Positions 346 to 58,161 of a stretch of 64,000 bases of DNA are shown piece after piece. A program made the position numbers and the translations under genes. Each line of letters opens with the position of its first letter. Position 1 is the first letter of the stretch. The stretch is taken from assembly GCA_017939755.1 (NCBI GenBank), contig JAGBAJ010000042.1:31563-95562 (forward strand), in the 5' to 3' direction. This DNA is from Clostridia bacterium. Lineage in GTDB: Bacteria > Bacillota > Clostridia > TANB77 > CAG-508. The notes beneath the pieces are model-generated. The model searched no databases and had not been told where the DNA came from. It saw only the letters and a program-made list of their open reading frames with translations.

Positions 346-1956
346 TTATAATTCGCTTTTGCCATATAAGATCTCATACGAACTACGTGCATCCTCCGCA
401 GCAGTGCGAGCTTCATCAGCTTTTTTCTGTGCTTTAGCTAATTCCTCGTCGGCCTCTTCTGCCTTAGATTCCAGATGCTCAGCCCAAAGCCTTGATACAA
501 CTTCGAATATACGCTGTTTACCATAATCGCTGATGACAATAATATCCTTATTACCTCCACCAGTACCAATGTATCCAATATCAGCTCCTGTATAGAATGC
601 AATGTTACCAAGGTACTCCCAGAGCCCATCGGGAAGTGTATTCTCATTCACGTTGTTGAAATGTTTAATCTGCCAATCAACCTTGAGCTCTTTATAGATG
701 GGCTCGTACTCATCCTGGAAGAATGGCCAGTTGGGTGCAATTTCACCAGTTTCCTTGTGACGATAAGCAATGCAAATTTTGGCCATGCTACCTGGAATCA
801 TCCCTATTGTATCCATACAATTGATAGCAAGTTTGTGATTGGCACCATTCCGAAGGATAGCCTCACGAACACATACGCAATCAAACCAACCAAGAAGTCT
901 TCTTCTGCCAGTGGTAACACCACACTCGCCATTCACGTCATGAATGAAATTGTCTATCTCAAATTCGTAAAGATTGTTTTGGTCAAACTTCGTAACAAAG
1001 TGGCCACCACCAACCTTAGAAGCATAACCTTTGGCAATGAGAATAACTCCCTCTGTCAAATCATTAAGTCCAAGTCCTGCATCTGCCATTGCACCAGCAA
1101 CTGTAGTATGTGTGGATGTAACCATATGACCGCCATTTCCAAAGATAGAATCCAGACCAAAAGCCTGAGAAACCTCCAGTACTACAGCCCAACCATGGAG
1201 TTTGGTGTAACGGATGATTTCTGAGCTATTTACAACATTGAGCTCCTGTACAGCAGTATACAGAGATTGCATATAATTGTCTATGCCATCAAATTCTGTT
1301 GCAATACTGTCCCAAATTTCCTGTGGAACATCTGGAATAGCTATAAAAAGCTCTTTCAATTCATCTGCATTTTTGCAAGCCTTTGCCTGAGCGAAGCGGA
1401 TATCAACTCTAAGAGCTCTATACGCAACCGTAGGACCAACACCAGATCCAGTTGTGCCGACTTTATTTTTTCCGTCTTTTTTTGACTCATAGTATCCATC
1501 CATAAGTCTTTCAAGCATGGTTGAAAGTGTGGCACGCTCATCCACGAGAATTTTCTGACGCTGTTGCGAAGGAAGCACAGACATTTCGTCATGAATCCGG
1601 ATAGGATCCAGAAGCATTCCGCCACCAAGCAGAATTATATCTGATACCAGACCACCGCTAGGAAGGTAGTGAAAATGGTATTCTTCCTCGGTAAGCGTAT
1701 CGATGACAGTATGTCCCGCGTTTCCGCCTCCTTGGCCTCTGACATTAATGACAGAAAAGCCTTTTTCCTTGTAATCGCGAATAGCAATATCCACGATTTT
1801 CCCCTTGCCCTCGTCGCCAAAGTGCGACCCAACAACGGCCACACCAGCGTTATACGCAAGAAAGTTCTTCTTGTTGAGAGCATATGGAAAAGGTTTTCCT
1901 GCTTCTGTCTTTGCTTCATTAATCAAGTCAGAGACATTTGGAATTTTTTCATTCAT
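346..1956 (-). CDS. Adenylosuccinate synthetase family protein, atypically long (536 aa) with N- and C-terminal extensions
   Basis: P-loop 'GDEGKGKIVD', 'GGGNAGHTV' and 'YHFHYLPSGGL' match the PurA fold motifs (GDEGKGK / GGxNAGHT / IPSG). It is ~100 aa longer than canonical PurA and has a charged coiled-coil-like tail ('AEEADEELAKAQKKADEARTAAEDAR'). GGAGG RBS upstream. GC ~43% versus ~27% background. Confidence 0.7.
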   Translation of the reverse strand: MNEKIPNVSDLINEAKTEAGKPFPYALNKKNFLAYNAGVAVVGSHFGDEGKGKIVDIAIRDYKEKGFSVINVRGQGGGNAGHTVIDTLTEEEYHFHYLPSGGLVSDIILLGGGMLLDPIRIHDEMSVLPSQQRQKILVDERATLSTMLERLMDGYYESKKDGKNKVGTTGSGVGPTVAYRALRVDIRFAQAKACKNADELKELFIAIPDVPQEIWDSIATEFDGIDNYMQSLYTAVQELNVVNSSEIIRYTKLHGWAVVLEVSQAFGLDSIFGNGGHMVTSTHTTVAGAMADAGLGLNDLTEGVILIAKGYASKVGGGHFVTKFDQNNLYEFEIDNFIHDVNGECGVTTGRRRLLGWFDCVCVREAILRNGANHKLAINCMDTIGMIPGSMAKICIAYRHKETGEIAPNWPFFQDEYEPIYKELKVDWQIKHFNNVNENTLPDGLWEYLGNIAFYTGADIGYIGTGGGNKDIIVISDYGKQRIFEVVSRLWAEHLESKAEEADEELAKAQKKADEARTAAEDARSSYEILYGKSEL

Positions 1957-2249
1957 TATATTCGACCTCCAATCGAATTATGTTTATGGTCGGGTATTCG
2001 TCAAAAGACTATACGCCTTTTGGGCTTATTCGCATATGCTGCATTTACGCAACATACAGAATAAGTACTTTGACTTTGTTTTTGGTATCAACCTCCAATA
2101 TTTGTTAATTATTTTGTACACGAATTCCATACGGAAATTCATGTAGTATTATATTACCTTTTGGGTGTTATGTCAATTGATTTGCAATATAAAAAGAGAA
2201 TCTATTGTAGAATTTGTTACGATTCACAGATTAATTGCATTTTATATAA

Positions 2250-2403
2250 GATTAGCGATATAGTGTAAATTTATAATATGAAGTTAAGGTGGGGACCAGC
2301 AAATTAGAGAATTTAATTTTTACAAGTGTATAACGCAGTAAAAACGTAAATTCTCTTATGTAGCTGGGGCGTAATATTATAAATTTACACTATATCGCTA
2401 ATC
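2250..2403 (+). ncRNA. Copy 1 of a 154-nt structured repeat element: a perfect 30-bp closing stem around a conserved core (GAAGUUAAGGUGGGGACC...GCUGGGGCG). An additional outer 14-bp inverted repeat spans 2216-2229 / 2424-2437.
   Basis: Inverted repeat 'attagcgatatagtgtaaatttataatat' / 'atattataaatttacactatatcgctaat'. Core is conserved with the copies at 6633-6786 and 49609-49762. Inner helices covary between copies (CCAGC/GCUGG vs CCAAC/GUUGG; agagaattta/taaattctct vs agagaatcta/tagattctct). Confidence 0.45.
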
Positions 2404-2459
2404 TTTATTATTTAATTCTAAAGCTGTGAATCGTAACTAAAACTTAGGTTCTCTATATG

Positions 2460-2798
2460 TTATCTACCAAATAATTTTTTCAATTTTTGTATAATTCTTT
2501 TAAGCCAACTTTCTTTTTTTCCTTCTATAATTAGTCCCTTTTCCATTTGTTTTTTATTTTTTTCATCAGCCCAGTAATCTAAGTATATATTAGATAAAAT
2601 TCCTTTGGTTATATCAGATATATTCTGCTCATTTATATCTTTGCTATAGTCTATAGAAAAATCATACTTGGTGTCCATATTTCTTTCTAATGACAATATT
2701 AGCTCTTTAGGAAGTTTGTTATAATTTTTTATAGACATGTTATTAATTATTGTTAATGCTTCTGTGCAAGCTCTACTATATTCATCATTCATTGCCAT
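2460..2798 (-). CDS. Hypothetical small protein (112 aa), overlapping and apparently translationally coupled to the upstream kinase-like gene
   Basis: ORF of 112 aa that overlaps the 323-aa ORF by 14 nt. No recognisable motifs. Confidence 0.4.
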   Translation of the reverse strand: MAMNDEYSRACTEALTIINNMSIKNYNKLPKELILSLERNMDTKYDFSIDYSKDINEQNISDITKGILSNIYLDYWADEKNKKQMEKGLIIEGKKESWLKRIIQKLKKLFGR

Positions 2799-3756
2799 TA
2801 TCCCCTTCCATCTTTTGATATATTTTGTTTAAATATGATTTAGCATCATTATGACATTGAAAAGAAACTTTATTAGCTATGCTTTCAATGTCCTTTACTG
2901 AGGTTAAAACAGATGTGTCTTGGGGTTGAATTCCATATAATAATTCGTTTTGCTTCGTTATTAATGCCATTTTTCTTCCTATATTATTACAAATTTTATT
3001 AATATCTTGCTCACTTATTGATCTAAAAACTGGCATATTAAGAATTCCATTGATATAATCTCTTGTTAAGTATTTCTGTAGGGATTTTGAAACTTCTTGG
3101 ATAGACTCTGGATATTTTTGGTACATTTCCATCATAATATCTATATCTGACTTACCATCATAATTTGTATCTGAATCACAAAAAGCCATGCTCATGTCGT
3201 AGTACATATCTGGATTACGAACTATCCCGCTCTTTTCATCAAAAATTAGCCTACAATTATCGCTTTTTATATCAGTATTTCCAATAAAAGCTGATATAAA
3301 AATATATTTCTTAAAGAATTCCTTTCTTTGTTGCCAAAATTCGATTGGAATGCTAGGATATAAGGCACTATATGTGTACGCATCTAATTCGATGCTATTG
3401 TCTATTCCAATTGGTAATTGTGGTAATCTAATATCCTGAGAATTAAATGTAGTCGTATTTTCTAAAAATTGCTCACCATCCCTTAGAATATCCATAGATA
3501 AACAGCCAGTTTTTCCGTTATCATCTTGTGTAAGCTGAATATTTGCAGTACGTATTCCTGCCGAGTTAAGTATAAGAGAGCCTAGTAATTCCCTTAAATC
3601 TGTATTTTTACCAGTAAAGCAATTTTTTTTATAAAGTCCCTTCTTTCCCAGCTCTGGAACATAGTATTCTTCTATAATAGAGCCATCGCTTGCTTGTAAG
3701 TTATTTTCACTATTTATTTTCTTACAGTCATGTAAATTAATTCTATTAAAGTTCAT
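2785..3756 (-). CDS. Hypothetical protein, possible HipA-like / protein-kinase-fold protein (candidate toxin)
   Basis: 'IGNTDIKSDNCRLIFDE' resembles the HipA catalytic loop 'GNTDDHLKN' and the Hanks-kinase 'HRDxKxxN' pattern. 'VRNPDMYYD' resembles HipA 'LAPAYD'. The assignment is from a weak motif-level resemblance only. Confidence 0.35.
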   Translation of the reverse strand: MNFNRINLHDCKKINSENNLQASDGSIIEEYYVPELGKKGLYKKNCFTGKNTDLRELLGSLILNSAGIRTANIQLTQDDNGKTGCLSMDILRDGEQFLENTTTFNSQDIRLPQLPIGIDNSIELDAYTYSALYPSIPIEFWQQRKEFFKKYIFISAFIGNTDIKSDNCRLIFDEKSGIVRNPDMYYDMSMAFCDSDTNYDGKSDIDIMMEMYQKYPESIQEVSKSLQKYLTRDYINGILNMPVFRSISEQDINKICNNIGRKMALITKQNELLYGIQPQDTSVLTSVKDIESIANKVSFQCHNDAKSYLNKIYQKMEGDNGNE

Positions 3757-3793: not shown

Positions 3794-5158
3794 CTAAAAA
3801 TTGGTTTTGTTTAATTTTTCTACTAGTTCCTTGTTATCTTTTGTTGATATTGTTAATTGCATAATTTTATCTGTAAATTCAGTATTTGATGAGTTTTGCA
3901 TTGCTCTTCTTAATCTGTACATTGTTGCTAGCTCTTCTGGCTTTAGCAATAAATCTTCACGTCTTGTTCCAGATTTGTATATATCAATTGCTGGGAATAT
4001 TCTTCTTTCTGCCAAACTTCTGTCTAAATGAACTTCCATGTTACCTGTTCCTTTAAATTCCTCAAAGATAACCTCATCCATTCTACTTCCTGTTTCTACT
4101 AATGATGTTGCAAGTATTGTTAGACTTCCTCCATTTTCTATATTTCTGGCAGCTCCAAAGAATTTTTTTGGTTTATGCAATGCTGCTGGATCAAAACCTC
4201 CAGATAGTGTTCTTCCGGAAGAAGGTATAACTAGGTTGTATGCTCTTGCAAGTCTAGTTATACTATCTAGTAAAATTACAACATCTTTGTTTTGTTCCAC
4301 TAGTCTTTTTCCTCTTTCTAGTACCATTTCGGCAACTTTTACGTGATGCTCTGGTAATTCATCAAATGTAGAATATATAACTTCTCCTTTAATAGATCTT
4401 TTCATATCTGTAACTTCTTCTGGACGCTCGTCAATTAATAAAACAATTAATTCTACCTCTGGATTATTTTCAGATATACTATTTGCAATTTTCTTTAACA
4501 AAGTAGTTTTTCCTACCTTTGGTGGAGCTACTATCATTCCCCTTTGCCCTTTTCCAACAGGACAAATTAAATCAATTATTCTCATAGCATATTCATTAGA
4601 TTTAGTTTCTAGACTTAATTTTTCTGTTGGATATATTGGTGTTAGGTCATCAAATTTTCTTCTTCTGTATGCCTTTTCTGGAGCTTCTCCATTAACTTCT
4701 CCTACATAAATTAAAGCAGGAAACTTTTCACCTTCTTTAGGTTGTCTTGCAATACCTTTTACTTTATCTCCTTTGTCTAATTTAAAACGTCTAATTTGAA
4801 CAGGTGATATGTATACATCTTTTGGTGTAGATAAATAGTTTTCTCCTCTTAAAAAACCATATCCATCTGGTAATACTTCTAAGATTCCTTCTATTATTTG
4901 GTCATCTGCATTTGTTACCTTATATGTTCCACTTGATGGAGCTTCATTATTGTTTTTTTCTGTGTCACTATGCTCTTTACGATCTAATGCATTTGTTGAA
5001 ACAATTGTTTCCTCTGTTGTTTTCTGTAATGTAGCATCATTGTTTTTCTCTGATAGAATTTTAATAAGCTCGTCCTTTTTTAACTTTGAAACATTTTTGA
5101 TACCTTTTTCCTTTGCTAGTTGTCGCAATTCGACTAAAGTACATTTTTCGAAATTCAT
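3794..5158 (-). CDS. rho: Transcription termination factor Rho
   Basis: N-terminal '[28 protein letters not shown]' and '[14 protein letters not shown]' match the Rho N-terminal and RNA-binding domains. Walker A '[22 protein letters not shown]' and the RecA-like ATPase core. Confidence 0.95.
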
Positions 5159-5402
5159 AAATTTCCCCCTATTAATATTAAATTTTATTTTTTCTTGGAA
5201 TTTTATAAGAAATAATAATTCTTTCAGAATTTAAAGTATAAAACAAAGTGGGCATGATTAATGTTCTCTGACATTTAGGATTACTTTTCATGCCTTGTTT
5301 TGGTTGCCTCACATATATTTTCTGCAACTTATTTAGTTACTCATGGCTAATAGATGTATAATATTTAACGAAGCTTTTTATATACTAGAGACATTTTAGT
5401 CC

Positions 5403-5675
5403 CTAGTTTGTAATATCAATATATACTCTTTCGTTAGGCAAATACATGCCAAGTTTTTCTCTTGCTACGTCTTCAATATACTCTGTTGAATTGATATTAC
5501 TTTTTATATGTTGCAACTTTTCATTTTCTGCTTGTGCTTCAACTATTTGATTTTGATAGTCTTCCGCTTCTCTGTCGTAAGAATCCATTGTTTGTTGTTG
5601 CATTAAACATACATATACAAAATATCCAATAACTGCAATAATTATTAATCGATTTACCTTAAGTTTTTTCTTCAT
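5403..5675 (-). CDS. divIC: Septum formation initiator family protein (DivIC/FtsB-like)
   Basis: Single TM helix followed by a coiled coil, then 'YIEDVAREKLGMYLPNERVY' typical of DivIC/FtsB. GGAG RBS before the MKKKL start. Lies immediately after yabP-yabQ as in other Firmicutes. Confidence 0.75.
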   Translation of the reverse strand: MKKKLKVNRLIIIAVIGYFVYVCLMQQQTMDSYDREAEDYQNQIVEAQAENEKLQHIKSNINSTEYIEDVAREKLGMYLPNERVYIDITN

Positions 5676-13301: not shown

Positions 13302-13506
13302 ATTAAAATTTCATCCCTTTCTCTATCCGCTCAGAAGGCTCACATAGTTTGTGTATATCATAATATTTAGTATTTTTCAACTCTTTCGGAGAGAGTAGCA
13401 ATCTCTGACAATTAGCAATCAAAATGTCGTTCCTTGTAATTTGGGAGTAAATTTAAAAATAGAGCAACAGAAGCGGAAGATAATCTTCCACTTCTGTTAA
13501 ATTGTA

Positions 13507-14712
13507 CTAATCCTCAATCCATTCAATTTCGTCAAAGTCAAGCTCTCTACCGATAAGAACAACGGGTTTCTGGTAACCTCCTTTGTATTCGTTTATAGGA
13601 ACAATTGTGGCTGCTCTAGCAACAAAGGCTTTACTCAGTTCATCGTTTGTCAATCTTATTCTGGGCTTGATTTTCTTAGAAAGCTTTTGTTTTGTTTCAT
13701 CAAACTCTGCATCATCAATAACGTACACATTATTAGCATATTTTAGCTTAATAGAAACAAGTTTACTACATGGAAAATGGGAAACCAATTCTGAAATAAT
13801 ATGACATGAGATTTTCTGTTTTCCATTTTCATTAGTGATACGCTGATTTGTATCACACCAACAGAATTCATCTCTTGCGACCTTCGATAAATTGGTTTTG
13901 GCTCTCACCCATAGTGGTACTAATCTTGGAAATGACCCGAAACTTGCATACCTATCTTCAGGAGGCAATTGCTCAGGGTTTTCAATTCCTTTTCTAATTC
14001 GATCAAGATCTGAACTGGGACAAATACTAAAGATTCGCTCCCATGGTCCATTATATGGTACAAGCTTTTCATGAGTTTCTTCTACCAATGTGGGCTCTGG
14101 ATTATTAAGAATATTATCCAAAACATTTGCTTTTAGCCAGCCTATAATTCTCTCAAACGTTTCATCAAGGCTGATGCTCTGCGGTTCATTGTCCATAGCT
14201 GCGTATTCGCGATCACAATCTGTAGTGTTAATCAGCATTGAGGATCTTACACCATTTTCACCAGTGTGATTGCCCAAATACAGTAAATACCTGCGGGGCT
14301 CTTTGTTAAGCTTGGCGTGAATTTTAATAGAATTCATAAACCAATTCTTATCCTCTTGCCACTTATCACCCACATACAAATAATACTTTGGCCCAGATTC
14401 ATCTTCGAATACTTCGAGGCATTCGTGAGAAATATGTACGCTGCAAAGAGCTGCAGTATCACTCCACCTTGAATCAAGCATTCCCTGTTTACGACTAAAT
14501 GTTAGTTTGAAATCTTGCCCTCTAATGTACCGAACCTTTTTGTATTTTGCTTCGCCAGATCCATATGAGTCGAATTCAACAACGATTCCAGGAACCCTCC
14601 AATTTCGTTTTTCCAGCTCTGTAATAATGTCACTTGCTATGCTGTCAAATGGAAACTGTCTAGAGTGTGGATACAAGAATTTTGGTTTTACATCAAAAAT
14701 AGACATGAACAT
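13507..14712 (-). CDS. Hypothetical protein (401 aa) in a GC-elevated island
   Basis: AGGAGG RBS; GC ~42% versus ~27% background; no motif I can assign. Downstream hairpin terminator at ~13455-13495. Confidence 0.5.
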   Translation of the reverse strand: MFMSIFDVKPKFLYPHSRQFPFDSIASDIITELEKRNWRVPGIVVEFDSYGSGEAKYKKVRYIRGQDFKLTFSRKQGMLDSRWSDTAALCSVHISHECLEVFEDESGPKYYLYVGDKWQEDKNWFMNSIKIHAKLNKEPRRYLLYLGNHTGENGVRSSMLINTTDCDREYAAMDNEPQSISLDETFERIIGWLKANVLDNILNNPEPTLVEETHEKLVPYNGPWERIFSICPSSDLDRIRKGIENPEQLPPEDRYASFGSFPRLVPLWVRAKTNLSKVARDEFCWCDTNQRITNENGKQKISCHIISELVSHFPCSKLVSIKLKYANNVYVIDDAEFDETKQKLSKKIKPRIRLTNDELSKAFVARAATIVPINEYKGGYQKPVVLIGRELDFDEIEWIED

Positions 14713-14774
14713 TCCTCCTATAAGTTATCTGGATGGAATTGCACTCCATCTAGATAGTCGAAAGCTATGGTTGT

Positions 14775-14882
14775 CTACAGCTGCTGTGTTAGAATGGTTG
14801 AACCTTTTGATAAGACCTTCAAAAGCTTGATATTAAGCTTCGCAAGATCCAGCTGGATAATGTTCTTCTCGTTTGTTTTCAT
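14775..14882 (-). CDS. Putative small protein (35 aa: MKTNEKNIIQLDLAKLNIKLLKVLSKGSTILTQQL), immediately upstream of and co-oriented with the 401-aa ORF
   Basis: Strong RBS 'aggaggaaaaaaATG'; same elevated GC as the downstream gene; the ~60-nt gap to the next start suggests an operon. Confidence 0.3.
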   Translation of the reverse strand: MKTNEKNIIQLDLAKLNIKLLKVLSKGSTILTQQL

Positions 14883-15043
14883 TTTTTTCCTCCTAAGTCT
14901 AGGGTATTTAAACGGATTCGTGCTAATGTCTGACCGTAAAATATTTATATTATAATTATTTTCCACTAGCACATAATATACTTAAATTACTGACACATGC
15001 CTAGTAATTATGGGTTTTATTGTAACATGGATTTATGTAAATG

Positions 15044-16464
15044 TCAAACTTCTTGTACTAATGCCTTCAGAAATTTCCATATTCTTTGCAATGATTCTAT
15101 TTCTACTCTTTCGTCTGGACTATGGGCATCAAAAATATTTGCTCCTATGCAAATGTACTCTAAATTATCTATTCTATCTTTAAAAAATCCTCCTTCAAGT
15201 ACTCCCTGTGTTATTAATTTTTCCATATCTTTTCCAAATAATTTTTTATATAAATTGGCTGTTTTATTTACTAAATTGCTTTTATAATCTGGCTCAAGTC
15301 CTTTTAGTTCTTGATTCCATATTATTTCTATATCATTTCTTCTTAGGTTATTATCTAGTTGGTTCAAATATTGTGCTCTAAGTTTCATGCAATTACTTCG
15401 TAAAGAATATTCTAATCTAATATAATCATCTTTTTCATTTATTGCCCCAAAATTGGCTGATAATATTTGATTTCCATTTTCATCGAAACTAATTGCACCA
15501 TTATTAAATGAATTAATAAAATTTATTATTCTCAATGATGTTTCTTTTGAAGTAACTTCTTCTTTATTTTTGATTTCTAAAAATTCAATTTTTACCTCTT
15601 CTCCATAAAATTCCTTTTGCTTTTTAATTTCCAGATTTACAAATTCTTTTATATCTTTATTACACGCAAATTCTACTTCAAAATTTCTTGGTATAACATT
15701 TACTAAACTTCCACCTTTAATACTACTTATATATACCTCACCTATTTTAGCTAAAATTTCTATTCCAAGTTTTATAGGATTTCCTCTTTTTTTATCTGCA
15801 ATACATCCTCCTGAATGGCCGCCTTTAAAATTGCTATATGATAGTTTGTAAAACTTCATATTACTTACTTTCATGTACTCCTTTTTTACTTTTGCAAACC
15901 ACTCCATACAATTTGCAGAGCTAATTACCATCTTATTTTCATTTCCATTATCTAGTGAAATAATTTTTCTTGACTTTATTTGCTCTATATCTATATATTT
16001 GGCACCATCCATCGTAGTCTCTTCTTGCACTGTAAATATACATTCAAGTTTTGGTGTTTTCAGTTCATTCGAATCTAAAATAGCTAGTATAAATGCAACA
16101 CCAACTCCATTGTCTGCTCCTAAAGTAGTTCCATTAGCTTTAATAAATTTTCCATCTTTTACCAATTCTAAAGCATCTTTCTCAAAATTATGATTGCTCC
16201 ATTCTTCTTTTTCACAAATCATATCTGTATGTGCTTGAAGACCCAACCATTCATAGTCTTCAAACCCTTTGTCCGCATTTTTTCTGATTATTACATTAAA
16301 ATATTTATCTGTATAGTATTCTAAATTTCTAGCTTTAGCAAATTCTAATAAGTAGTCCCTAATTTTTTGTTCATTTCTAGATTTTCTAGGAATTTCACTT
16401 ATTTCCTTAAAAAACTTTAGCATTTCTTTTGGCTCTTCTTTATTTATGTCTAATTTTTCCATAT
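15044..16464 (-). CDS. pepD: Aminoacyl-histidine (Xaa-His) dipeptidase, M20 family
   Basis: 'LQAHTDMICEKE', 'GTTLGADNGVGVAFILAIL' and 'HSGG' M20 metal-binding motifs. Start placed at MEKLD, which has a GGAG RBS. Confidence 0.85.
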
Positions 16465-57031: not shown

Positions 57032-57338
57032 TTTTTTACCTCCTAAAAAAATTATTAAATCATATAGATTTGTTATTTACTCGCTCATTATATAATATAT
57101 AAATTCCAAATTCAAGATTTTATTAATTTAAAATGCCATATTAGTTACTATTTAATAGCGTAAAGTAAAAAGCTTTGTAATATGTGAATTTTGACTTCCT
57201 ACTTCGGATGCTCTGCTATTTCACTAAAGCATTAATATTCTACCCTTAACTTTACATAATTTAGTTTTAGTGGTATACTATAGTTATGGGGGATTTCTTA
57301 CTTCCACAGACTGAGTGCCTGTATGAAAGGAAAAAAAT

Positions 57339-58161
57339 TATGAAAAAAATCATCATTGCAGTTGTTTGCATGCTTGCAAGCATCTGCACCTTCATCACAA
57401 GCACAACCATTTCATTTGCTGCATCAGCAGCTATTGACGACCTTGCTGACATTGCCTGCCTTGATGTAACGGGAGATGGCGTTATCAGCGAAAGCGATTA
57501 CGAAGTCGTTCACCGTAATGTATTTGAAGGCTATACTAGCATTGCCACGCTGGTTAAGCTCGAAAAATACCTCAATCACATTAACTATAGCGTAATAGCA
57601 GTTAATGAGGAAAACACTAATCGCATTAGAAACTGGTTAGGATTTTGTGGCGGATCAATAGATATTCGTCACGCCTGCAGTGGAGCGATTATTGACATTT
57701 CTGATGATGGTGAAACATTATGCAGATTTGTGTTTAGCTCCGGATACTCTGAGGAGATGCCCGAAGAGGCAAACGTAGTCATCCGTCATGTGAGCGAGTG
57801 CGGAGTGGTTTACACCATCTGGGAAGATGGAAGCCACTACTACATCCACGAACAAGAGATTGAATTCGAGGATAAGAAGATAACGGAAGTTAAATTCGAC
57901 AATCCTCTCCTCGCAAATTGGTTTTACAATTGCGAGGCAGAATTCAAATTACGTGAATATCCTGATGGAGCTATAGGCCTCTCCTTTGAGGACGCTAAGA
58001 GCGCTTATATCCTCGTATTTGAGGAGGGCTTCTCAGAAATGCCTCCTACAGGAACTGGAGAAATTATTCATCGCCACTGGCTGCCCAATGAAAAGCGTGA
58101 GCTTATCATATGGGGTAGTAACGACGGTAAGTATCACGTAAGCATCATATCCGAATCGTAA
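57339..58161 (+). CDS. Secreted protein with a dockerin / EF-hand-like 'DVTGDGVISESD' motif; strongly GC-elevated (~45%)
   Basis: Start at MKKIIIAVVCMLAS (signal peptide) with RBS 'aaggaaaaaaattATG'. Flanked by a 12-bp inverted repeat: gactgagtgcct (57309-57320) and aggcactcagtc (58177-58188). Confidence 0.5.

Follow-up and report, generated by a model that had tools for sequence, protein, structure and literature searches.

Does a small open reading frame (ORF) with a strong ribosome-binding site, lying just ahead of a large ORF in DNA of unusual base composition, encode a partner of the larger protein? This question is raised by a unit on contig JAGBAJ010000042.1 of a Clostridia bacterium where, within the 64,000-nucleotide (nt) stretch that we analysed (the window), an ORF of 35 codons (14775..14882, minus strand) lies upstream of one of 401 codons (13507..14712, minus strand). 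An original prediction had read the two as a two-gene island, of a kind seen for the precursor of a ribosomally synthesized and post-translationally modified peptide (RiPP) with its enzyme, for toxin–immunity pairs and for phage-defence modules. Both ORFs were found as described, with a gap of 62 nt between them and a strong Shine–Dalgarno (SD) sequence on the 5′ side of the smaller one (AGGAGG-AAAAAA-ATG). Comparative data remove the tempting peptide–enzyme pair as a false lead, since the small ORF with its strong SD sequence appears to be the stump of a gene. As a structural and evolutionary reading of the locus, we consider it very probable that one real gene, here called X, and a gene stump lie together on an acquired cassette.

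The 35-codon ORF resembles the 5′ end of a longer gene

Locus L051, obtained through its adjoining endonuclease Q gene (90% identical to the window copy), carries an intact gene, Y, with a product of 381 amino acids (aa). Window positions 15047-14838 are 73-74% identical to the promoter, 5′ untranslated region (5′ UTR) and start of this gene, and homology to the Y promoter, 5′ UTR and first ~27 codons covers window 15047-14800. In a BLASTP comparison, residues 1-26 of the 35-aa product aligned with residues 1-29 of Y from L051 (15/29 identical, 52%; E = 4e-6). The product also aligned from residue 1 with all four known Y clusters (378-388 aa), with which it has the N-terminal pattern MKTN(D/E)..NII(Q/R)L(D/N/E)L(A/S)K(L/C)(N/D).. 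in common. The homology is not full-length: only residues 1-26 of the small ORF align, and tblastn with Y otherwise left the window blank. Directly past the stop codon of the small ORF, at 14774, begins the blastn homology between the window and locus L035, at which an X gene (84% protein identity) occupies a different context and has a canonical short leader and no small ORF. The 35-codon ORF appears to be the 5′ stump of a truncated Y gene, made up of ~27 codons plus read-through, and not an independent peptide gene; gene callers left it uncalled. Copies of Y lie at L051:6413-7558 and L057:2552-3700, that of L051 encoding a helical-repeat-like protein, and the GC content at third codon positions (GC3) of Y is 38%.

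The original prediction had named loss of the small ORF in relatives as evidence against its reading, and had proposed to look for the peptide and the protein together in other genomes. At L036, where X is 89% identical and has the same pepD context and promoter, the ATG of the stump is lost, ~130 nt are deleted and the SD sequence before the lost ATG is weakened to AGGAGA. At L037, where X is 81% identical, 14 stump codons are kept and a non-triplet deletion then carries the frame out of phase into X; the stump differences between L037 and the window are nearly all non-synonymous. When all loci were searched by tblastn with the 35-aa peptide, the sole matches were those of the same strain (L001-3) and a fragment of 19 aa at L037. 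About 25 other X loci lack the ORF, and none of them has an upstream ORF preceded by an SD sequence.

These results bear directly on the view that the 401-aa protein works with a precursor, immunity or other partner peptide made from the small ORF, whether in a RiPP, toxin–immunity or two-gene defence system. An intact 35-codon frame with a consensus SD sequence, 62 nt upstream of X in the same atypical unit, is what that view would predict. Against it stand the absence of the ORF at all other X loci, its destruction in the two nearest relatives of the same context, the largely non-synonymous nature of its differences, its homology to the N-terminus of a 378-388-aa protein, and the lack in X of any RiPP-enzyme, toxin or known-defence domain. 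We regard a partner peptide as extremely improbable. The RiPP proposal is left with neither a peptide gene conserved beside X nor a RiPP-enzyme domain; the toxin–immunity proposal finds no neighbour family across 28 loci and a monocistronic X gene that has a promoter and a terminator of its own; and for a two-gene phage-defence module, neither a conserved peptide nor a known-defence domain in X is seen. X itself gave ratios of non-synonymous to synonymous substitution (dN/dS) of 0.16-0.21 against its three closest relatives (L035, L036 and L037), and appears to be the sole gene of the unit under purifying selection.

The promoter, 5′ UTR and terminator are shared with gene Y

A promoter scan identified a sigma-70-type promoter at 15019..15047 (minus strand), with TTGACA, a 17-nt spacer and TACAAT (11/12 matches). 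The −10 element is preceded by TG, and the −35 element shares nucleotides with the stop codon that ends the M20 peptidase gene upstream. In an alignment with L051, L036 and L037, this promoter is homologous to that of the intact Y gene in L051. The 5′ UTR that follows (14883..15018, minus strand), judged to be Y-derived from the same alignment, shares 74% identity with the sequence ahead of Y in L051 and 95% with L037 over 103 nt, the proportion of synonymous differences (pS) in the X gene being 0.41; overall it is 90-95% identical in relatives with synonymous sites 22-41% diverged. It contains a hairpin at 15007-14987 and a 9-bp long-range helix, 14972-14964 / 14928-14920 (GUGCUAGUG/CAUUAGCAC; all on the minus strand), in which the changes seen in L036, L037 and L051 are wobble-compatible and preserve the pairing. 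The whole window leader gave an RNAfold z of −3.1. Such strong conservation of the 5′ UTR fits a role as a working promoter and leader.

The same conservation might be taken to mean that the stump has been co-opted to tune X expression in this lineage, whether as an upstream ORF with a regulatory role or as a STAB-SD-like element that binds ribosomes and stabilizes the mRNA. The perfect SD sequence and ATG have been kept, the stop codon falls within the former H1 hairpin of the X leader, 63 nt before the X start, and the surrounding UTR is far more conserved than synonymous sites. Yet in L036, which has no ATG and only the weaker AGGAGA, X is intact and under purifying selection; in L037 the ORF runs out of frame into X; and the UTR conservation is accounted for by a promoter and leader role for Y. 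We therefore favour the stump as a remnant, and consider its co-option quite unlikely.

At the other end of the unit, the predicted terminator hairpin was confirmed by a terminator scan (13455..13499, minus strand; a stem of 16 bp, a 3-nt loop and a T run). It is nearly identical to the Y terminator in L051/L052, with pattern or blastn matches in L035, L036, L051 and L052. No other full copy of the sequence is present in the window, and it was found only in X and Y units of this sub-lineage.

X behaves as an accessory, horizontally moved cassette

The unit was correctly placed between an EndoQ-like gene and pepD: its flanks are an endonuclease Q/TIGR00375-family gene and an M20 dipeptidase (pepD-like) gene. 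In its whole extent, the compositionally atypical unit spans 13355..15047 (minus strand), taking in the promoter, the leader, X, the terminator and a further ~100 nt past it that are common to L035; in blastn, L035 4937-6363 aligns with window 14774-13355 at 85% identity. A comparison of synteny with close relatives, as originally proposed, indicates that the X unit is an indel. L035 and L051 are 89% identical on both flanks, and the 1.55-kb X unit is present only in L035. We looked for a target-site duplication where L035 and L051 part and detected none; what lies between the flanks that they share is simply different sequence. No X adjoins EndoQ in relatives in which that gene is 78-90% identical; in those of 78-84%, among them abundant organisms such as Clostridium sp. 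CAG:571, other genes lie where X would be. The contexts of X also vary (SecA/Ppx, GATase/GDPD, VanW with small ORFs, and pepD/EndoQ); close X relatives (81-89% identical) occupy at least two different contexts, and clustering of the neighbours over 28 X loci revealed no shared family.

The elevated GC content that had first drawn attention to the stretch is real, at lower figures than the 40-42% in a background of ~27% given originally: we obtained 37.9% for the 401-codon ORF, 38.0% for 13507-14882 and 29.2% for the window. The description of the stretch as compositionally foreign is borne out by a GC3 for X of 32%, the third highest among 55 ORFs in the window, for which the mean is 19% (sd 5.5). 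The GC content of the gene exceeds that of its flanks at all AT-rich Clostridia X loci (47% versus 27% at L020), and little or no such excess is seen at four GC-richer loci, three from Saccharibacteria and one alphaproteobacterial. Expression-linked codon bias is excluded as the cause, because at L006 five ribosomal-protein and IF3 genes of the same locus have a GC3 of 10-17% and X has 50%.

Selection on the coding sequence or mRNA of a vertically inherited gene, rather than transfer, could also raise GC content. This would agree with the elevation seen across the AT-rich hosts of the family, with the strong, conserved promoter and SD sequence, and with synteny that is partly kept within sub-lineages (L009/L022/L027, L006/L014/L024 and L012/L038/L041). 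It would not account for the low GC3 of ribosomal-protein genes beside X at L006 (10-17% against 50%), for the lack of X between the same flanks in a close relative, for the different contexts of X relatives 81-89% identical, or for the unrelated GC-elevated single genes (Y and an HD_3 gene) that adjoin in relatives. We judge selection of this kind unlikely. As no gene consistently adjoins X, as the same flanks may or may not enclose it, and as its synonymous sites are richer in GC than those of its AT-rich hosts, X appears to be an accessory cassette that has moved horizontally.

Next to the X unit we found no integrase, no transposase and no repeat boundary. An integron cassette was considered and set aside, as the units carry their own promoters and neither a GTTRRRY core nor an adjacent integrase was seen at the examined loci. 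Two further observations concern the neighbourhood. In close relatives, endonuclease Q is flanked by GC-elevated single-gene units, with Y downstream and a YfbR-like HD_3 gene upstream (L051:4131-4790, GC3 36%), and cassettes may be gained and lost at a local hot spot around the endonuclease Q gene. Upstream of the X/EndoQ region, reverse-transcriptase (RVT_1) fragments lie beside DUF6273/LRR_5 proteins (L035:459-3257 and L051:1-2231); these may belong to a diversity-generating retroelement.

Gene X belongs to a conserved family with no assigned domain

The reading frame of X is open from 14712, and its start is probably the second ATG at 14706, because this lies 7 nt past the SD sequence and the family consensus opens MS(V/I). 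The likely product is then 399 aa (13507..14706, minus strand), the length of the database entry; it is a soluble, cytoplasmic protein with two domains, and its family is uncharacterised. As originally stated, it has no assignable motif: there was no match in Pfam, NCBIfam, PADLOC or PDB sequences. Scans of X, 48 relatives and longer or shorter homologues against Pfam, NCBIfam and PADLOC gave nothing consistent, and a profile of 49 X sequences retrieved only chance matches to antibodies among PDB sequences.

The family comprises 197 clusters at 90% identity, of ~400 aa, ~50% identical to X and with a Pfam domain in none. A profile search extended it to 577 clusters at 50% identity, and mean column identity of the X alignment is 62%. 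Many of the 577 clusters consist of ~200-aa proteins that match the N-terminal half alone. As these proteins (P0216-P0270) match only X residues ~9-200, the N-terminal domain appears to occur also as a stand-alone protein. Matches in genomes came from AT-rich ‘Clostridia bacterium’ metagenome-assembled genomes (MAGs) from animal guts and from four Saccharibacteria (38-40% identity), with one weak alphaproteobacterial match. Full-length homologues of 26% identity occur on two Bosea megaplasmids, among genes for a type IV secretion system (T4SS) and type IVb pilus and a Dcm methylase gene; tblastn found no homologue in phage records. Tandem X paralogues are present in two genomes (L019:3920-5203 and 6792-~8070; L024:2542-~3830 and 3923-5493), each with its own promoter and canonical leader.

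The cysteines of X had been singled out in the original prediction. The stretch CWCDTNQ...HFPC is present as stated; it is not a metal-binding motif, because family members have no conserved Cys other than C231 and C286. A DNA mimic was ruled out by the isoelectric point (pI) of X (6.0) and the family median (5.5).

The proposed structural check gave a mixed outcome. The AlphaFold (AF2) model is confident, with two domains, a mean predicted local distance difference test score (pLDDT) of 91 and a predicted template modelling score (pTM) of 0.85; no significant fold match was obtained, Foldseek of the model returning nothing below E = 0.01 in PDB or BFVD and the N-domain searched alone giving no PDB fold. 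Tpt1/KptA recurs among the top weak matches (PDB 1wfx, 8tg4 and 9ldg, and in BFVD a ‘putative RNA 2'-phosphotransferase’ of phage PaBG), at probabilities of 0.2-0.54, E values of 0.16-2 and template modelling (TM) scores of 0.30-0.40, which are not significant. These matches stem from the C-terminal half, since they vanish when only the N-domain is searched, and we propose with low confidence, from the predicted model, that this half may have a distant Tpt1/KptA-like fold of the ADP-ribosyltransferase (ART) type. Tpt1 catalysis depends on an Arg-His-Arg-Arg tetrad. X differs from Tpt1/KptA in being twice as long and in that its family has no invariant His: none occurs in the invariant or ≥90% conserved columns of X alignment A1. 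The Pfam PTS_2-RNA model did not match X, and the 49-sequence profile did not find Tpt1 chains in PDB even at E ≤ 10.

One further context deserves mention. In a Saccharibacteria MAG (L028), a 1017-aa SMC/AAA_21 ATPase matching PADLOC Ppl, AriA and mad3 (best E = 2e-24; 675-3728) has X directly downstream (3926-5584). The X gene there has a GC content of 61% against 44% in its flanks, and encodes a C-terminal extension of ~100 aa.

Because of its sporadic distribution, the Ppl-like ATPase neighbour, the Bosea plasmid contexts and the weak ART-like fold matches, none of them decisive, we tentatively guess that X is a conflict- or mobile-element-associated enzyme. A narrower proposal is that X by itself serves in anti-phage defence or as some other conflict effector, its GC content, distribution and context reflecting the dynamics of defence islands. 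It would explain the presence or absence of X between identical flanks, its foreign composition in AT-rich hosts, the tandem paralogues in L019 and L024, the 61%-GC island beside the Ppl/AriA/mad3-matching ATPase in L028, and the Bosea homologues among plasmid T4SS and DNA methylase genes; the weak Tpt1/ART-like matches of the C-terminal half point the same way. It agrees poorly with most of the Clostridia contexts, which consist of housekeeping genes, with the conserved promoter and highly conserved translational leader, unusual for defence genes, and with the lack of homologues in phage records. In PADLOC-DB v2, moreover, no match was significant, the best being PDC-S02 (E = 0.005-0.01 over ~40 residues in 2/49 members). 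We consider a role in defence rather unlikely. The domains expected of RiPP tailoring or recognition (YcaO, radical SAM, LanM/LanB, RRE) had no Pfam or NCBIfam match in X or 48 relatives.

Most X genes are preceded by a conserved leader RNA

At most Clostridia X loci, the gene follows a common promoter (TTGACA-17-TATAAT) and a leader of ~85 nt. The canonical leader consists of a hairpin H1 (GGUU-AUUGCAC-AACC), a short variable linker, a second hairpin H2, (U)ACGGGGGA-GUGCAAU-UCCUCCGU(A), then AGGAGG and the ATG. The H1 loop AUUGCAC and the H2 loop GUGCAAU, of 7 nt each, are perfectly complementary, and the 3′ arm of H2 (CCUCC) is an anti-SD sequence able to pair alternatively with the SD sequence. 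We aligned 19 distinct canonical leaders (alignment A3, including L013:337-419, L014:3921-4003 and L035:4922-5003). In these, 100% of the cells form standard pairs in H1, H2 and the loop–loop pairing. Three H2 pairs have changed on both sides, a level reached by 0/500 shuffles, and RNAalifold independently predicts H1 and H2. The canonical leader is, by this analysis, very probably a conserved structured cis-regulatory RNA, H2 being backed by compensatory changes.

The minimum free energy (MFE) fold of single sequences is a different one, in which the two loops form a long-range helix and the 3′ arm of H2 (UUCCUCC) pairs with the SD sequence. This SD-sequestering fold is the MFE in 6/6 leaders, at −22 to −31 kcal/mol (z = −4.1). 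From the two folds we infer a translational switch between an SD-free and an SD-occluded state. Variant leaders (L012, L017, L021 and L022) keep the GGAGG/CCUCC hairpin with GNRA-type or other loops. In Rfam 15, neither the window region nor seven loci gave a leader match at E ≤ 1, and none reached the gathering score over the whole window; a full-text literature search for the loop heptamers returned irrelevant matches only, and a scan of viral contigs for the leader pattern found nothing. We put forward the ~85-nt leader as a candidate new translational regulatory RNA outside Rfam. Three known elements were compared by eye and set aside: CIRCE for ATTGCAC..GTGCAAT (its half-site has another sequence and a spacing of 9 nt, against 28 nt here), a T-box specifier for the UGC-A in the loops (a T-box leader is far longer than ~85 nt, no stem I or antiterminator was seen, and Rfam had no match), and a sigma-K −10 element in the promoter spacer (the motif is present in both orientations).

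At some loci that spacer (17 nt) holds TTTACATAAA, and at others the same position is taken by the exact inverse, TTTATGTAAA (promoters upstream of X in L004-L047; window 15041-15025, minus strand); the two forms suggest an operator that is nearly palindromic, TTTAYRTAAA. Elsewhere in the window the motif shows no enrichment.

A motif scan of metagenomes placed the leader mostly before X genes and also before two unrelated small genes, both with the same promoter and leader as X. One leader (L044:2-84) precedes an 88-aa ORF at 82-348, the other (L047:2601-2683, minus strand) a 55-aa ORF at 2436-2603 with 40% GC. A related two-hairpin leader (L004:10914-10990) stands ahead of a 325-aa gene from 10988 with 42% GC that is unrelated to X. 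The L047 and L004 genes are, like X, GC-elevated. Such leaders before genes other than X may point to a regulon in common or to an expression module that is portable.

In the window the leader is decayed. Covariance model R1, built from the 19 canonical leaders, matches 14704..14810 (minus strand) at 31 bits, with E = 7e-4 over 354 kb and 1e-6 locally. In H1 (GGUU...AACC), 28 nt replace the canonical 7-nt loop AUUGCAC. H2 is intact (14757-14725, core 14750-14732, loop GUGCAAU); it is maintained by two further double, compensatory changes and is predicted as a hairpin by RNAfold. The SD sequence AGGAGG lies at 14719-14714, and the anti-SD sequence is weakened to CCAUCC. In L036 and L037 both leader hairpins are lost.

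A model for the origin of the unit

Window 15047-13455 (minus strand) is very probably one monocistronic unit, built by recombination or deletion between two accessory cassettes. Its order is the Y promoter, the Y 5′ UTR, Y codons 1 to ~27, the 3′ part of the X leader (H2 and the strong SD sequence), X and the terminator. The simplest origin of the fusion may be a deletion in a former Y–X tandem, or else recombination between cassettes. In most members of the family, X would be expressed from the conserved promoter, with the two-hairpin leader acting as a translational on/off control; in the window lineage this control would be largely lost, and X would be read from the captured Y promoter.

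Several findings weigh against one part or another of this reading. In this strain the stump remains an intact, in-frame ORF behind a perfect SD sequence, and may still be translated as an upstream ORF. Partial synteny in sub-lineages implies that X is also inherited vertically, and its lasting GC elevation could reflect selection. Covariation does not separately support the SD-sequestering fold (pairs form in 91% of cells, not above shuffles), and the loop–loop pairing is invariant save for one wobble and so is not proven by covariation. Finally, the guess at the function of X draws on weak fold matches only, in a family that lacks the invariant His of Tpt1.

A bolder version of the reading would have X be a new fold or enzyme under a new class of bistable kissing-loop leader, with X, Y and other GC-elevated units as exchangeable promoter–terminator cassettes that swap around the endonuclease Q gene as a shared regulon or mobile system. 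The units X, Y and the L047 gene do share a promoter type and in some cases the leader, and X and Y of this sub-lineage have the terminator in common as well. We nonetheless hold this extended scheme to be improbable as a whole.

Setting aside the peptide–enzyme pair leaves two things of moderate value. One is a well-conserved, unannotated family (~577 clusters at 50%) with a confident model that has no solved or viral fold match; in gut Clostridia and Saccharibacteria it has the behaviour of an accessory gene that moves horizontally. The other is a compact conserved leader RNA outside Rfam, for which complementary loops and a decoy/anti-SD arm offer a simple, testable model.

Other compositionally atypical genes in the window

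The most atypical composition in the window belongs to a 291-codon ORF at 57286-58161 (plus strand; GC 43%, GC3 45%), which lies on the strand opposite to nearly all other window genes. Its sequence includes an internal start resembling a signal peptide (MKKIIIAVVCML...) and a stretch similar to a dockerin/EF-hand (DVTGDGVISESDY), and a Pfam search gave no match. At 346-1956 (minus strand) lies an adenylosuccinate-synthetase-like gene (GC 43%, GC3 37%) whose product of 536 aa is longer than expected for this enzyme. It has a TTGACA-17-TATAAT promoter and a hairpin-bearing leader of ~190 nt, reaching ~2175, for which no Rfam riboswitch match was found. This may be a second horizontally acquired gene.

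Comparison with known systems

The X leader resembles SD-sequestering leaders, such as translational riboswitches and RNA thermometers, in that its anti-SD CCUCC can pair with either a G-rich decoy arm (H2) or the real SD sequence. Unlike these, it matches no Rfam family, its loop–loop and SD-occluding folds lack covariation proof, and the window copy has no intact H1 and a weaker anti-SD sequence. Its complementary 7-nt loops recall kissing-loop RNAs of the ColE1 RNA I/RNA II type, in which 7-nt loops pair.

As a mobile unit, X is comparable with small genomic islets, the single genes acquired by horizontal gene transfer in reduced AT-rich genomes. It has the same foreign composition at synonymous sites, its own promoter and terminator, presence or absence between the same flanks, and a variable location. 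It differs from them in having no adjoining integrase, transposase or repeat boundary, and in having its promoter type and, in the sub-lineage, its terminator in common with cassette Y.

The 35-codon ORF is most like the 5′ pseudogene stumps left by recombination or deletion, since it keeps promoter, 5′ UTR, SD sequence, ATG and ~27 codons and then diverges; L036 and L037 resemble such stumps in their further decay, through loss of the start and out-of-frame deletions. What sets the window stump apart from the usual case is that its frame is still open over 35 codons and that its promoter appears to have been captured to drive an intact X.

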